From IMG/VR virus record IMGVR_UViG_3300043478_000008, positions 1-32,779 of that record: DNA of 32,779 bases. One strand, 5' to 3'. Position numbers and translations under genes: made by a program. Within the stretch, counting starts at the first letter, position 1. The number at the start of each line of letters is the position of its first letter. This stretch comes from a virus. Its lineage: Duplodnaviria; Caudoviricetes. The notes beneath the pieces are model-generated. The model was not told the DNA's origin. It saw nothing but the letters and a program-made list of their open reading frames with translations, and did no database searches. Shown one piece after another: positions 22,219 through 29,590 of this stretch.

Positions 22219-22571
22219 ATAGCAAGACGTACGATAGGCTCAAGCAGGTGGCTCAGATCTGGCTACCTGGTCTCGGTACCCTATATTTCACGATGGCCAA
22301 CCTCTGGAATCTACCGGCCTCCGAAGAGATCGTAGGTTCGATCGTAGCCATTGATGCATTTCTAGGTCTCGTGCTCCACATCAGCACGCAAGGCTACAAC
22401 GCAATTGGTCAGTACGACGGGACCTGCCACGTAATGACGTCTGAGGACGGAACCAAGAAAACGTTCCAGCTTGTGATGAACGACGACCCATCTGGAGAGG
22501 GTTTCGAGAACAAACCCTCCATATCCTTCAAGATCAGTAATCAGGCTCCTAACGAGGGTGTCGCAGGCTAA
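22215..22571 (+). CDS. Holin (Dp-1-like)
   Basis: KTYDRLKQVAQIWLPGLGTLY...W.LP...IVG.I.AID.FLG.VL.IST..Y; ATGA overlap; SD AAGGAG. Confidence 0.8.
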   Translation: MNSKTYDRLKQVAQIWLPGLGTLYFTMANLWNLPASEEIVGSIVAIDAFLGLVLHISTQGYNAIGQYDGTCHVMTSEDGTKKTFQLVMNDDPSGEGFENKPSISFKISNQAPNEGVAG

Positions 22572-22592
22572 ACACGGCCTATAATGAGACCC
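22561..22592 (+). promoter_or_regulatory. Conserved promoter-like repeat, copy 1
   Basis: TCGC aggct AAACA cggcc TATAAT GAGACCC, followed by SD TAAGGAGA. Confidence 0.85.
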
Positions 22593-22607
22593 TACCTAAG
22601 GAGAACT

Positions 22608-22898
22608 ATGTTCCACTTCCGGAAAGATTCCGAACCGTCCCAGCTCAAAGCGCTGATCGACGTGCACACCCGCGAACTAATCAACAATAACTACGACTCC
22701 GATGAATACGCGCGCCGTGTTGACCAGCTGTCCAAGCTCTGCAAGATGCAGGAGACCATATCTCCTACGCGTCGTGTTAGTGCGGACACCCTGGCCATCA
22801 TCGGTGCGAACCTCCTCGGCATCTTGGTCATCGTTGGATACGAGCACATGCACACGATCACCTCCAAGGCCATCGGCTTCGTCGTCAAGCCGAAGTAA
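22608..22898 (+). CDS. Cassette 1 small membrane protein (96 aa)
   Basis: SD then ATG 22608; TM segment TLAIIGANLLGILVIVGY. Confidence 0.8.
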   Translation: MFHFRKDSEPSQLKALIDVHTRELINNNYDSDEYARRVDQLSKLCKMQETISPTRRVSADTLAIIGANLLGILVIVGYEHMHTITSKAIGFVVKPK

Positions 22899-22920
22899 CA
22901 CAGAACCCAAAGAAGATTTC

Positions 22921-22963
22921 GCGTATACGCCGTCAGGAAACCCCTGCGCGGCGTATACGTTTT
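22921..22963 (+). terminator. Intrinsic terminator after cassette 1
   Basis: GCGTATACGCCG / CGGCGTATACGT arms with inner CAGG/CCTG, then a short T run. Confidence 0.65.
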
Positions 22964-22983
22964 ACACGGCTTATATTTTTGTC

Positions 22984-23015
22984 TCGCGTAGAATACAGGG
23001 CCTATAATGAGACCC
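22984..23015 (+). promoter_or_regulatory. Conserved promoter-like repeat, copy 2
   Basis: TCGC gtaga ATACA gggcc TATAAT GAGACCC. Confidence 0.85.
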
Positions 23016-23035
23016 ACTACTTAAGGAGACCCGAA

Positions 23036-23263
23036 ATGTTCGGACGCCGACTTGCCGTGACCCTCGTCCCCTCTTCCAAGAAAACCCCCACCAACCCCGA
23101 GACTGCCGTCAAGGAGCCCATCGACATCGAGAACCTCGTTCTCACCCTCGAAGGCTCCGCCATGCGCGTGATCACCTGTGTTGCGTACGCGGGCGTCTTG
23201 GTAATAGCGGCGAGGACCATGGGCAGCATCTGCGATACCGTCGTCAAATCCGTCTACAAGTAG
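23036..23263 (+). CDS. Cassette 2 small hydrophobic protein (75 aa)
   Basis: SD TAAGGAGA, ATG 23036; hydrophobic VITCVAYAGVLVIAA. Confidence 0.75.
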   Translation: MFGRRLAVTLVPSSKKTPTNPETAVKEPIDIENLVLTLEGSAMRVITCVAYAGVLVIAARTMGSICDTVVKSVYK

Positions 23264-23268
23264 ATCTG

Positions 23269-23300
23269 AAGCCTATATCCTTACAAGGGATTTAGGTTTT
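23269..23300 (+). terminator. Intrinsic terminator after cassette 2
   Basis: AAGCCTATATCC...GGATTTAGGTTTT. Confidence 0.75.
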
Positions 23301-23340
23301 CCGACCAAAAATTTCCCGGGTGGGATTTTTGGTAGAAAGG

Positions 23341-23372
23341 TCGCAGAGAAAACATGCCCTATAATGAGACCC
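23341..23372 (+). promoter_or_regulatory. Conserved promoter-like repeat, copy 3
   Basis: TCGC agaga AAACA N5 TATAAT GAGACCC. Confidence 0.85.
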
Positions 23373-23390
23373 CTACCTAAGGAGATTCCA

Positions 23391-23558
23391 ATGATCAAGG
23401 CCCTTGCCCCCGTCAAGAACTTCGTTTCGAAGCACCGCGTTGCGGTTGCGGTCGTCGCCACCTCCTCGGTGTTCGTCGCCCTCAACCTCCGCAACGCCAA
23501 GCTGCTGAACGAGTTCCTCACGGAGCACAACCTAGTCGAAGAATACTACTCGGAGTGA
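23391..23558 (+). CDS. Cassette 3 small membrane protein (55 aa)
   Basis: SD TAAGGAGA, ATG 23391; TM segment VAVAVVATSSVFVAL. Confidence 0.8.
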   Translation: MIKALAPVKNFVSKHRVAVAVVATSSVFVALNLRNAKLLNEFLTEHNLVEEYYSE

Positions 23559-23563
23559 ATCAC

Positions 23564-23594
23564 AAACCTAGTCCCAACACGGGATTTAGGTTTT
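23564..23594 (+). terminator. Intrinsic terminator after cassette 3
   Basis: AAACCTAGTCCC aacac GGGATTTAGGTTTT. Confidence 0.8.
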
Positions 23595-23596
23595 CC

Positions 23597-23628
23597 TCGC
23601 GTAGAAAACAGGGCCTATAATGAGACCC
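23597..23628 (+). promoter_or_regulatory. Conserved promoter-like repeat, copy 4
   Basis: TCGC gtaga AAACA gggcc TATAAT GAGACCC. Confidence 0.85.
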
Positions 23629-23645
23629 CTACGAAAGGATCAGCC

Positions 23646-23816
23646 ATGATTAACTTCGAAAACCTCCACAAGAACCACAAGCTCGCCTACATCGACGGAC
23701 TCCTCTGTGGCATCGTCGGCACCGTAATTGCCGTGCAGATGCTCCAGGAGTACCGCGACAACCGCGAACTTCGACTCTTGATGAAGGAAAACAAGAAGCT
23801 CAAGCCGACCAAGTAG
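23646..23816 (+). CDS. Cassette 4 small membrane protein (56 aa, not in ORF track)
   Basis: SD AAAGGA; MINFENLHKNHKLAYIDGLLCGIVGTVIAVQMLQEYRDNRELRLLMKENKKLKPTK-TAG. Confidence 0.8.
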   Translation: MINFENLHKNHKLAYIDGLLCGIVGTVIAVQMLQEYRDNRELRLLMKENKKLKPTK

Positions 23817-23821
23817 ATCTG

Positions 23822-23851
23822 AGACCTAGCCACCCATGTGGTATAGGTTTT
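23822..23851 (+). terminator. Intrinsic terminator after cassette 4
   Basis: AGACCTAGCCAC ccat GTGGTATAGGTTTT. Confidence 0.75.
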
Positions 23852-23855
23852 ATAT

Positions 23856-23887
23856 TCGCAGAATAAACATGGGCTATAATGAGACCC
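23856..23887 (+). promoter_or_regulatory. Conserved promoter-like repeat, copy 5
   Basis: TCGC agaat AAACA tgggc TATAAT GAGACCC. Confidence 0.85.
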
Positions 23888-23905
23888 CTCACTAAGGAGA
23901 ACCCC

Positions 23906-24076
23906 ATGAACCAGTTCCTCGCCAACCTCAAGCGTTCCGCTATTGAGAACCCCGTCCCCACCATCGCCGTCATCGCCGTTGCAGTTACCGCTGCAGCCAA
24001 GCTGATCGACGCCGCTGGTCACGCCCGTGGTTCCAACGCGTACGCCAAGCAGGTTAACGCCAAACTGAAGAAGTAA
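23906..24076 (+). CDS. Cassette 5 small membrane protein (56 aa)
   Basis: SD TAAGGAGA, ATG 23906; TM segment PVPTIAVIAVAVTAAAKLI. Confidence 0.8.
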   Translation: MNQFLANLKRSAIENPVPTIAVIAVAVTAAAKLIDAAGHARGSNAYAKQVNAKLKK

Positions 24077-24092
24077 CTCCCATCCAGACCTC

Positions 24093-24127
24093 AAAACCTA
24101 AACCCCTTACCCAGGGCTATAGGTTTT
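24093..24127 (+). terminator. Intrinsic terminator after cassette 5
   Basis: AAAACCTAAACCC...GGGCTATAGGTTTT. Confidence 0.75.
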
Positions 24128-24130
24128 GTC

Positions 24131-24156
24131 TCGCGAGGAAAACATGCCTTATAATG
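24131..24156 (+). promoter_or_regulatory. Conserved promoter-like repeat, copy 6 (lacks GAGACCC and SD)
   Basis: TCGC gagga AAACA tgcct TATAAT G. Confidence 0.8.
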
Positions 24157-24324
24157 GAAGAACAGGTAAACTGCTACGAGAATTTCGATATTCTCCCCGA
24201 AAGGGAAAGGAGTGTAGCCACTAGTAATAGTGCTGATTCTTCCAGAAAAGGTACCACTCATTGGTAGCTGGTTCAAAGAGTGATTCGACAAGAAGATCGA
24301 CATTGAAGCTCGCCTTTTCATTTT
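24156..24324 (+). ncRNA. Candidate structured ncRNA occupying cassette slot 6
   Basis: No SD or credible ORF. Stems GGAAGAA/TTCTTCC, GCTAC/GTAGC, GAGAAT/ATTCTC, CCC-GAAA-GGG and CACTA-GTAA-TAGTG; second domain closed by GAAAAGGT/GCCTTTTC, then a T tract. Confidence 0.7.
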
Positions 24325-24327
24325 GCC

Positions 24328-24359
24328 TCGCAGAATAAACATGCCCTATAATGAGACCC
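24328..24359 (+). promoter_or_regulatory. Conserved promoter-like repeat, copy 7
   Basis: TCGC agaat AAACA tgccc TATAAT GAGACCC. Confidence 0.85.
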
Positions 24360-24377
24360 CTAACTAAGGAGAATACA

Positions 24378-24548
24378 ATGGACCAGAACGCCACCCTTCC
24401 CGAGATCACCGGTTCCACCACCATGCACTACATCAAGGTAGCCGTCCGCGCATTCGCGCCGGTCGCGGTCACCCTTGGCGTCGGCGTGGCGTGCGGGATC
24501 CTAATCGAGAAGATGAAGAACAAGTCCGGCGACAACACCGAAGCCTGA
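24378..24548 (+). CDS. Cassette 7 small membrane protein (56 aa)
   Basis: SD TAAGGAGA, ATG 24378; TM segment AFAPVAVTLGVGVACGILI. Confidence 0.8.
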   Translation: MDQNATLPEITGSTTMHYIKVAVRAFAPVAVTLGVGVACGILIEKMKNKSGDNTEA

Positions 24549-24555
24549 ACATCTC

Positions 24556-24595
24556 AGCCCATAAGGCCCTAACCCGGCTTATGGGTTTTGTTTTT
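24556..24595 (+). terminator. Intrinsic terminator after cassette 7
   Basis: AGCCCATAAG...CTTATGGGTT followed by TTGTTTTT. Confidence 0.85.
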
Positions 24596-24645: not shown

Positions 24646-25068
24646 ATGCGCAAGAAGGTCGTCGCTCTATTCGCGGTAATCGCCCTGGCACTTGGTATGG
24701 TGGCCGCTACGGCGGCGCCAGCCATGGCTTCGGGTTGTCGGATCCAGTCTCTGTCCTGGGCGGGGCACACAACCCACAGTGGCAGTCTGGTGTGGGGTTA
24801 CAGCCCCATCTACACCAAGCCCGCTCCGGGATGCAACGACATCCAGGTTCGCAACATGCACGATCTCTCGGGTGGCTCCACCTGGACGACCGTGCAGATC
24901 GAGTGGCTGACCCCCAGCGGTGCCCACACGGGCTGGGGTACGGCCTACAATGTGATCCTCGATCAGTCGCCCTGGAAGATCGTAGCCACCGGCGTGATCG
25001 CCGGCACCAAGTACCGAGTCTGGAACCAGGACGACGGGTATCTGTACTCCGGCCAGGTAATGGACTAA
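24646..25068 (+). CDS. Secreted protein with Sec signal peptide (140 aa)
   Basis: MRKKVVALFAVIALALGMVAATAAPAMA then a Trp-rich beta-type mature region with two Cys; visibly GC-richer codons than its neighbours. Confidence 0.8.
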   Translation: MRKKVVALFAVIALALGMVAATAAPAMASGCRIQSLSWAGHTTHSGSLVWGYSPIYTKPAPGCNDIQVRNMHDLSGGSTWTTVQIEWLTPSGAHTGWGTAYNVILDQSPWKIVATGVIAGTKYRVWNQDDGYLYSGQVMD

Positions 25069-25443: not shown

Positions 25444-26199
25444 ATGAATCTGTCATCCATCATGAGTCGACTGGCTCGATTCACATCTAACAACTCTCCG
25501 GCAATCCTAACCGGGGTCGGCGTCGCCGGCGTACTCACCACCGCGTTCCTCACTGCTAAGGCGAGCTTTAAGGTAGGGGCTAAGATCGCCTACGTCGAAG
25601 CCGAGTACTTGCAGCACATGTCCTGGCAGCAGAAGAAGGACTTCTTCATCAAGGAGAAGTTGTGGAAGCTCTTTATCCCACCAGCCGCGGTCTGCTTCGC
25701 CACAGTTACGGCCATCATATTCTCCAATCGGATCGAGTACCGGCGAGCAGCTGCGGTAGCAACTGCGTTCGCCATATCTGAGCGAGGGTGGGAGGAATAC
25801 AAGACCAAGATCGTCGAGAAGCTCGGGCCGAAGAAGGAACAGCAGGCTCGCGACGAGGTAGCTCAGGACGAAGTGAATCGCAAGCCTCCGACCATGCAAA
25901 CTGTGATCCTTGGAGAAGGCGATTCTCTTTGCATGGACCGATGGAGCGGAAGATATTTCCGCAGCACGATGGAGCGAGTGAAGACCGCGATGGTCGAAAC
26001 CAACGCTAAGATCTATCGAGAGGACTGGGCATCTCTCACCAGTTTCTACGATGAACTGGGGCTAGAGCCCACGCAGGAATCCGACAACATCGGATGGAAC
26101 AAAGACCATCCTTGCGAGCTGGAGTTCTCCTTCGCAGGGGATTCGGCCGGTCAACCGGTCATGTGTTTCGCGTTCCGGGCAATCCCACACGAGTACTAA
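25444..26199 (+). CDS. Conserved membrane-associated protein (DUF6353-like), paralogue A
   Basis: NSPAILTGVGVAGVLTTA N-terminus; D.WSGRYF.S; FYDELGLEPT...IGW. Confidence 0.75.
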   Translation: MNLSSIMSRLARFTSNNSPAILTGVGVAGVLTTAFLTAKASFKVGAKIAYVEAEYLQHMSWQQKKDFFIKEKLWKLFIPPAAVCFATVTAIIFSNRIEYRRAAAVATAFAISERGWEEYKTKIVEKLGPKKEQQARDEVAQDEVNRKPPTMQTVILGEGDSLCMDRWSGRYFRSTMERVKTAMVETNAKIYREDWASLTSFYDELGLEPTQESDNIGWNKDHPCELEFSFAGDSAGQPVMCFAFRAIPHEY

Positions 26200-27805: not shown

Positions 27806-27823
27806 TCCACAAGTACATCCAAG

Positions 27824-27857
27824 AAACTAATTGGCTGAAACTCGCCTTTTAGTTTTT
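27824..27857 (+). terminator. Terminator-like hairpin after cassette 8
   Basis: AAACTAA tt GGC tgaaactc GCC tt TTAGTTT TT. Confidence 0.55.
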
Positions 27858-28675: not shown

Positions 28676-29590
28676 ATGAAGATCCGTCTTACGAAGATCA
28701 GTAATGCAATCACAAGTCGAATGGGCAACAAGCTACTGGCTGTCCAGAGCAAGTCTCCCACCATCCTGTTCGCCGCCGGCGTTGTCGGCGTGGTTACCGC
28801 AACCGTTCTGGCTTGTCGGGCTACCCTCAAGCTGGACGAGATCCTCGACGCGCACCAGGAGACCGCTGACAAGATCAATGCTCTTCCTGAAATGGTAGTG
28901 GAATACACCGAACACGACGCCAAGAAGGACCGTCTGCGTCTGCTGATCCGTACCTCGGGTCGAATCGCGAAGCTGTATGCGCCGGGGGTGGCGGTTGGTC
29001 TGGCGGCAATCTGTGCCCTTACCGGATCGCACTTCATCCTAAGTCGCCGCAATGTCAGTCTGGTCGCTTCGTATGCAGCGCTCGACAAGGGCTTCCGGGA
29101 CTACCGTAACCGGGTCGTGGACGAACTGGGCAAGGACAAGGACGACGAGTACCGCTACGGCCAGATCGAGCGTGAGATTGCGGAAGACACCAAAACTGGA
29201 GTGGTCGTCAAGACCATCAAGACGTTCGATCCGAACAAGGTGTCCGTTTACGCGAAGATCTTCGATGAGAGCTGCCCGACGTACGAGCGTAACTCGGAAT
29301 CCAATCGGACGTTCCTCCAGTGTCAGCAGAACTTCTGGAATCACCGGCTGCATGCCAGGGGTCACGTATTCCTGAACGAGGTCTACAAGGGTTTGGGCTT
29401 CGAGCCTACTCAGGCTGGTCAGGCAGTTGGGTGGACCCTCGGCAAGGATCGAGACAATTATATCTCGTTCGGCATCTTCGAGAACCTCGATAACGAACGA
29501 GTTCGTGCATTCGTGAACGGCAACGAGCGTTCCATCCTGCTCGACTTCAACGTCGATGGGCCCATTCTCAATATGCTTGAGGAGCTCTAG
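28676..29590 (+). CDS. Conserved membrane-associated protein (DUF6353-like), paralogue B
   Basis: KSPTILFAAGVVGVVTATVLACRAT N-terminus; GHVFLNEVY..LG...T.AG..VGW; LDFNVDG.I. Confidence 0.8.
   Translation: MKIRLTKISNAITSRMGNKLLAVQSKSPTILFAAGVVGVVTATVLACRATLKLDEILDAHQETADKINALPEMVVEYTEHDAKKDRLRLLIRTSGRIAKLYAPGVAVGLAAICALTGSHFILSRRNVSLVASYAALDKGFRDYRNRVVDELGKDKDDEYRYGQIEREIAEDTKTGVVVKTIKTFDPNKVSVYAKIFDESCPTYERNSESNRTFLQCQQNFWNHRLHARGHVFLNEVYKGLGFEPTQAGQAVGWTLGKDRDNYISFGIFENLDNERVRAFVNGNERSILLDFNVDGPILNMLEEL

Follow-up and report, generated by a model that had tools for sequence, protein, structure and literature searches.

A gene-less promoter cassette in a soil phage: an apparently undescribed structured RNA, possibly a tRNA-elbow-like decoy

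The window, i.e., the whole stretch of 32,779 nucleotides analyzed here, comes from a soil phage (virus record 56% complete) and contains a promoter-led cassette without a gene, whose own promoter likely drives transcription of an RNA of about 170 nt. Judging from the sequence, this slot very probably gives a folded non-coding RNA. Its first part, domain 1, is apparently a real and undescribed structured RNA family, in which the covariation among homologues also appears to be real. Together with a weakly supported domain 2, it would form an RNA that we tentatively regard as a possible tRNA-elbow-like decoy for a host protein.

The ORF-less slot and its setting

The gene order of the window runs through terminase, portal, head, tail and holin genes to an array of small cassettes, in which the slot and its parts are arranged as follows.

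22560..24590, + strand: promoter-led cassette array, seven cassettes behind the holin gene (six small ORFs and one RNA slot)
24126..24155, + strand: promoter repeat copy 6 (TCGC..ACA..TATAAT; repeat family D1), one of eight in the window, with a sigma-70-like score and an 18-nt spacer
24156..24243, + strand: domain 1, a conserved structured RNA, new family of six sequences (fold, alignment and covariation)
24245..24319, + strand: domain 2, closed by GAAAAGGU/GCCUUUUC (one homologue, L192)
24315..24324, + strand: T-rich tail, likely the 3' end, read from the sequence; it overlaps the next promoter copy and is kept in L192

All words and stems named in the earlier note were present where it had placed them. 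A DNA sequencing run from which the window may derive agrees with its sequence. Copy 6 had been singled out as the one promoter copy without the GAGACCC leader, in agreement with the presence of TATAAT-GAGACCC in seven of the eight copies and its absence from the copy at 24130-24172. The claim that no credible ORF follows copy 6 also held, there being none with a ribosome-binding site and no conserved frame. The sole frame starts at an ATG inside the TATAATG hexamer and has 37 codons in the window; frames at the same position in five homologues have 4, 9, 10, 20 and 17 codons and fall into three different frames. Because the frame at the hexamer end (ATG/GTG) varies so widely in length and register, a conserved peptide is unlikely.

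The minimum-energy structure of the slot showed both domains as they had been drawn (-49.4 kcal/mol), and it was more stable than shuffled controls (z = -3.19; none of 200 shuffles was equally stable), as expected for a structured RNA in the earlier note. The first 169 nt of three of the seven protein-coding cassettes rendered z values of -3.1 to -3.9, so the folding score is not diagnostic by itself. When folded separately, domain 1 reached a z value of -3.55 (0/300 shuffles) and domain 2 one of -1.28 (34/300 shuffles). From promoter to T tract, the unit is gene-less and likely yields a structured RNA. A scan for hairpins followed by T runs omits the tail at 24315..24324, because the region enclosed is long.

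The slot had not been recognized as any known family, and the searches were in concordance with this: no Rfam match reached the gathering score over the window, and ARAGORN reported no genes. Rfam returned four chance matches (E values of 1 to 8) over 24050-24400 and nothing for the RNA slots examined at six related loci; no tRNA or tmRNA cloverleaf was detected by either program. No description of these slot RNAs was found in the open literature searched. In seven of the files that supplement Fremin et al. 2023 (PMC10690425), the motif words of domain 1 did not occur.

The promoter repeat of the window matches those of Gordonia, Streptomyces, Rhodococcus and Arthrobacter phages. Koert et al. 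(10.1101/842583) link the same group of actinobacteriophages to Lactococcus and Faecalibacterium phages and attribute a putative RNA polymerase to this supercluster; the words "promoter," "repeat" and "terminator" are absent from the main text of that preprint. The putative polymerase was found in four of the five records tested, the window ending before the corresponding region, and gave a weak RdRP match, below the cut-off, against Pfam. In the GenBank members of the supercluster, these slots are unannotated, bar one labeled "tRNA-OTHER."

The array consists of repeated promoter and hairpin units with exchangeable cargo. As described by Arbiol et al. 2010 (PMC2839356), the PeSL cassettes of T4-type phages are likewise repeated promoter/stem-loop units framing swappable non-essential genes. 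These belong to a different phage group; their described cargo is protein, and their promoters are sigma-70-like. In the present array, by contrast, RNA occupies some of the slots, and the start likely abuts the hexamer. In the closest relative, L223 (94% terminase identity), the flanking cassettes are kept and the RNA slot is missing, which fits the expectation for an accessory host-interaction gene.

Three further features of the region were observed. An extra palindrome, AAAAATTTCCCGGGTGGGATTTTT, lies between cassettes 2 and 3 (23305-23335), is kept in L223 and is possibly an operator or origin element. An ORF at 24646-25068, with a signal-peptide-like N terminus and without a PHROG or Pfam match, is present in L192 and not at the corresponding place in L223. 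Two DUF6353 (phrog_2152) paralogues, at 25444-26199 and 28676-29590, flank the region behind the array.

Structure and covariation of domains 1 and 2

The domain-1 family comprises six sequences from four lineages, with 51-67% identity between lineages: those of the window, the cultured Arthrobacter phage Qui, and the loci L094, L191, L192 and L231. The Qui copy lies in an unannotated gap and has the same fold behind the same promoter; the copy in Paella is identical. The lead to Qui was a weak blastn match (E = 3) obtained with a longer query, and it was accepted only on structure. L094 was the one real member among at least 119 loci matching the domain-1 pattern, L191 and L192 were the two real ones among 23 metagenome pattern loci, and L231 was added from related loci (the best 80 of 330 were examined).

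Other searches added nothing to these six. The 169-nt query gave 15 short chance matches by blastn against 50,697 phage records, and relaxed scans recovered known members only (one of at least 100 loci and two of 35). None of the 18 pattern matches in the genome collection was real, so no bacterial or archaeal member was obtained from it. Model R1, run over 50 and 36 records, many of them fragments, found its three training members only; G003 and G004 (20.6 bits with this model) were dropped, as they had neither the invariant words nor the promoter.

The tape-measure proteins of the carriers are 40-48% identical to that of the window, and their G+C contents range from 42% to 53%. Domain 1 lies directly behind the promoter repeat in all six copies, four of which (Qui, L191, L094 and L231) stand alone, with a T tract right after P1. 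Among the records compared, which are incomplete, no partner gene or protein was exclusive to domain-1 carriers. On these comparisons, the family is rare, accessory and patchily present in distant phages. The elements of domain 1 are listed below.

24156..24165, + strand: 5' strand of P1, pairing with 24233-24243 (A24236 bulged); 8 of 10 pairs change on both sides
24164..24173, + strand: invariant AG-GUAAACU-G, identical in six of six; the unpaired J1/2 is 24166-24172; also a search word
24173..24218, + strand: P2 (24173-24177 with 24214-24218), the closing helix of the three-way junction that includes P3 and P4
24178..24195, + strand: P3, six positions in six of six; 35 of 36 cells paired, 5 of 6 pairs changing on both sides
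24196..24205, + strand: P4 hairpin with a variable loop (GAAA, GCAA, or 5 nt in the Qui lineage)
24206..24213, + strand: J4/2, (A/U)AAGGAG(U/A), with AAGGAG in six of six; also a search word
24219..24232, + strand: P5 hairpin, dispensable (absent in L231, extended in L094)

Covariation in homologues, named in the earlier note as a check, was found for domain 1. In an alignment fitted to the proposed structure and representing four independent lineages only, 21 of the 29 pairs changed on both sides, and 92.8% of 166 cells were paired, compared with 31-49% in slid controls. None of 500 shuffles scored as high on four of five measures, and the fifth (further pair types) was equalled by 86 of 500. 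P4 of the Qui lineage is misaligned in this alignment. With an unfitted alignment, RNAalifold recovered P1, P3, P4 and P5, and 17 of its 31 predicted pairs changed on both sides. It replaced P2 with pairs between J1/2 and J4/2, none of which changed on both sides. A stable J1/2-J4/2 helix (ACU/AGU) was rejected, since it shows no two-sided changes and is broken in L231; it would also probably be unable to coexist with P2 without linkers. In P2, two-sided changes were observed in three of five pairs, and every scored cell was paired.

The length of P3, which is capped by the invariant T-loop-like UUCGAU (24184-24189), is constant, whereas P4 and P5 vary freely among the six members. Invariant columns were concentrated in unpaired positions (20 of 28, versus 10 of 54 paired ones) and form the words AG-GUAAACU-G, UUCGAU and AAGGAG. 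All three doubled as search patterns, and their invariance is therefore partly selected. We take the GGUAA within 24164..24173 to be a D-loop-like word. The AAGGAG of J4/2 resembles a ribosome-binding site, with no usable start codon behind it.

For its part, domain 2 was present in two of the six members, the window and L192, and its inner elements are compared between these two sequences.

24255-24259/24278-24282 and 24285-24300, + strand: inner stem and hairpin of domain 2 (one homologue, L192)
24266-24276 with 24303-24310, + strand: possible pseudoknot of domain 2 (one homologue, L192)

No third member was obtained with model R2 (0/50 and 0/36 records, with no positive control among them) or with an exact-pattern scan (0/30 loci real). 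Of the two-domain RNA first proposed, the folding of both domains stood and their unity did not: because four of the six domain-1 copies end in a T tract without domain 2, the domains are separable modules. L192 retains GGUAGCUG, AAAGAGUGAU and UUGAAGCUCGCC; its domain 2 has a closing stem shortened by one base per strand and, in the hairpin, a single replacement of U-A by C-G. The pseudoknot suggested earlier is possible in a longer form (AGCU/AGCU plus UYAA/UUGA), which fits both sequences. Compensatory changes affect 2 of 25 pairs, one of them via the change in P1 length, and with the pseudoknot model 114 of 500 shuffles of the two sequences scored as high, a result not distinguishable from chance.

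Two other proposals were not sustained by L192, the sole homologue. The tRNA-like words of domain 2, TTGGTAG and GGTTCAAA, read CAGGTAG and GTATTAAA there; as the supposed D- and T-loop words differ in L192, any resemblance to tRNA lies in domain 1. An antisense match to cassette 7 had been based on TATTCTCC, which in the window is the reverse complement of GGAGAATA (24368-24375); L192 keeps TATTCTCC, but the next gene there reads GGAGACCG. The letters of TATTCTCC are those of the covarying 3' strand of P3.

The ends of domain 2 resemble those of stand-alone slot RNAs in Gordon (GAAAGGU..GCCUUUC) and L094, which suggests a fusion of two slot RNAs: domain 2 would be a once-separate slot RNA, later fused behind domain 1. 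A terminator-like hairpin behind the gene of the eighth promoter (27811-27856) has TGAARCTCGCCTTTT in common with the 3' end of domain 2 (86%, 21 nt).

Candidate functions

As a tentative explanation, we propose that an early RNA acts as a tRNA-elbow decoy for a host protein. P2, P3 and P4 are joined without linkers and an 8-nt strand leads from P4 to P2, an arrangement in which P3 and P4 would be expected to stack, with P2 beside P3. The UUCGAU loop, 6 bp out, would then neighbor the GGUAA junction, 4-5 bp out, and would dock on it as a T-loop, creating a surface like the D-loop/T-loop elbow of tRNA. On this structural model, we consider the docking itself somewhat more probable than its absence. 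UUCGA and GGUA are the T-loop and D-loop words of tRNA. In the family, UUCGAU and GGUAA are both invariant and stand at a near-constant spacing of 10-12 nt; as both proposed partners are invariant, covariation gives no test of their contact. If abundant early in infection, such an RNA would tie up a host protein that reads tRNA shape, the most likely target being a tRNA-attacking toxin or a defense enzyme. A host defense would thereby be disarmed by a minimal tRNA-elbow mimic that is no tRNA. The unannotated copies of domain 1 in the cultured phages Qui and Paella make the proposal directly testable on a laboratory strain of Arthrobacter.

Domain 1 is no tRNA, tmRNA, YrlA, known ribozyme or riboswitch. 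Its T-loop has 6 nt on a six-position stem in all six members and is closed by U-A or C-G; the T-loop of tRNA has 7 nt on a G-C-closed 5-bp stem, and tRNA also has an anticodon arm and a 3' CCA. Domain 1 shows neither a D stem nor an anticodon arm, nor is a CCA end conserved: the one at 24242-24244 is not kept in homologues. T-loops are general docking modules, so that a mimic of a ribosome-binding site, a ligand sponge, a ribozyme or another protein-binding fold also has to be weighed. A role in the phage's own machinery (RNA polymerase, packaging or replication), or the binding of another host protein by a compact fold unlike tRNA, is somewhat less probable than the decoy: all members belong to one phage group sharing a putative RNA polymerase, and the genome-collection matches (18) included no bacterial member, but neither the closest relative nor 83 further related records (fragments in many cases) contain the slot, which argues against core machinery. 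It is unlikely that the unpaired AAGGAG mimics a ribosome-binding site and binds the 3' end of 16S rRNA or a GGAG-reading protein, such as a translational repressor or an endoribonuclease, with the result that translation would be shifted or phage messages protected. The word is unpaired in six of six members (as AAAGGAG or UAAGGAG) with no start codon that could be used behind it, and the range of G+C contents among carriers suggests a target common to different hosts. However, a purine-rich 8-nt strand is, as is generally known, also needed by the three-way junction itself, the T-loop and GUAAACU are left unexplained by this mimicry, and AAGGAG served as a search pattern.

Invariant junctions on freely covarying stems, as are generally typical of ligand-binding RNAs, would suit a free aptamer soaking up a small molecule, for example a nucleotide immune signal, in a pocket formed by the junctions, and nothing downstream would be left for it to regulate, since the following cassette is led by a promoter of its own. 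We nevertheless find this improbable, as no Rfam riboswitch matched even at E values up to 10 and no ligand is indicated; we also know of no natural free-RNA small-molecule sponge of this kind. A riboswitch or cis-regulatory leader was rejected because a separate promoter precedes the following cassette in the window, L192, Qui, L191 and L094; in Qui, L191 and L094 that cassette is another ORF-less slot. The compact fold and the same junctions might also be those of a new small ribozyme in one or both domains, cutting the domains apart, for instance, and by eye the strand order of domain 2 would be that of HDV-like ribozymes if the pseudoknot forms. This is very improbable, given that no Rfam ribozyme (hammerhead, twister, pistol, hatchet or HDV-like) matched and that four of six members are already bounded by promoter and T tract. 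A twister-like or HDV-like identity failed on consensus features; of those that mark HDV-like ribozymes, domain 2 has neither the P3/L3 hairpin nor the word at the catalytic junction. Finally, the cassette might give no functional RNA and be a leaderless peptide gene, a DNA-level element or a decayed cassette. An ATG or GTG does overlap the hexamer end, and a short frame, EVNC, is common to four of six members; yet the peptides span 4-37 codons in three frames, only 85 of the 299 coding slots (see below) have the hexamer-end codon in register with their ORF, and compensatory stems with G-U pairs and GNRA loops persist across 51-67% identity, all of which makes such an origin improbable too.

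The tRNA-elbow decoy would not be without parallels. YrlA-type bacterial Y RNAs, as described by Chen et al. 2014 (PMC4201824), are like domain 1 non-coding, have a tRNA-like T-loop and also occur in phages; YrlA adjoins the Ro60 gene and has D and T arms, whereas domain 1 has no D arm and no Rfam match. No Ro60 (TROVE) gene was found in the five domain-1 records searched (Qui complete, four incomplete), the controls being positive in 2 of 14 genomes. To our knowledge, only a few phage RNAs act against host defense. Examples are the pseudo-ToxI of phage PhiTE, RNA anti-CRISPRs and phage tRNAs replacing cleaved host tRNAs. In these, a small phage RNA neutralizes a defense by mimicry, the mode proposed here; unlike them, domain 1 has no tandem pseudoknot repeats, shows no evident likeness to a CRISPR repeat and is no tRNA. 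The species 1 and 2 RNAs of T4 (rnaC and rnaD) are stable RNAs of unknown function that lie within the tRNA cluster and have partial tRNA likeness, in which respect domain 1 would be similar by description.

ORF-less slots in related phages

To place the slot among its counterparts, the promoter slots of 90 loci and of the window's own array, 391 in all, were sorted with a rough classifier, which mis-sorts some coding slots with weak ribosome-binding sites; 299 were classed as coding and 92 as ORF-less. The phage group thus likely carries a library of unannotated small RNAs. T-arm words were found in 4 of the 92 ORF-less slots; the reuse of tRNA parts by neighboring slots in relatives was counted as support for the elbow-mimic reading. 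The broader view, in which the library is swappable and domain 1 is a protein-free counter-defense RNA (an elbow mimic or an immune-signal sponge), is likewise offered tentatively.

A helix of at least six pairs that starts 1-2 nt past the hexamer and is complete ahead of TTT was present in 42 of the 92 ORF-less slots versus 12 of the 299 coding slots. The host sigma-70 polymerase starts about 7 nt behind the -10 hexamer, and from such a start most of these hexamer-adjacent stems would be lost. Three promoter copies of the window score 10 of 12 as sigma-70-like, with an 18-nt spacer, and the -35 position is not conserved over the 391 slots. From the helices abutting the hexamer and the lack of a conserved -35 position, we infer a start right behind TATAAT, probably by a phage enzyme; transcription would begin within about 2 nt of TATAAT, the phage's own RNA polymerase being the probable agent. 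Pairing right behind the hexamer thus predicts, in a form open to test, where an uncharacterized phage RNA polymerase would start. The ORF-less slots, about a quarter of the total, often have a closed RNA stem, including those of the cultured phages Gordon, Sporto, ReqiPoco6 and ReqiPepy6.

The same slots also contain another uncatalogued RNA class, which is commoner than domain 1 and has a AGACACGAA junction and a covarying hairpin, in which four of five pairs change on both sides (12 sequences). The hairpin loop swaps between two T-loop types, UGAAAGA and UUCAAAU/C, and, as judged by eye, a loop-loop contact that covaries joins it to a UUCGUUGG loop further downstream. No Rfam match was obtained for this class. 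It occurs in L288:2476-2583, L282:9545-9655, L293, L259, L268, L296, L278, L255, L257 and L298 and, among named phages, in Sporto (L308:5026-5152), Gordon (L307:5122-5206), ReqiPoco6 (L008:1856-1995) and Qui (L009:1664-1780). Since many cultured phages carry it, this class is probably a better target than domain 1.

Other slots contain tRNA-like RNAs whose acceptor stems are broken or extended and whose anticodon arms are unusual (ReqiPoco6, L008:1430-1510; L094:1192-1268; Gordon, L307:5028-5088; and L309:4451-4535); one from ReqiPoco6, annotated tRNA-OTHER and with a broken acceptor stem, matched the Rfam tRNA model at 37.4 bits. In a further group (Qui, L009:244-410; L191, minus strand; L280, L281, L298, L237, L245 and L305:8328), two or three tandem words of 15-30 nt lie inside a long closing stem; they might serve as seeds for antisense pairing, as decoys for proteins or as mimics of repeats.
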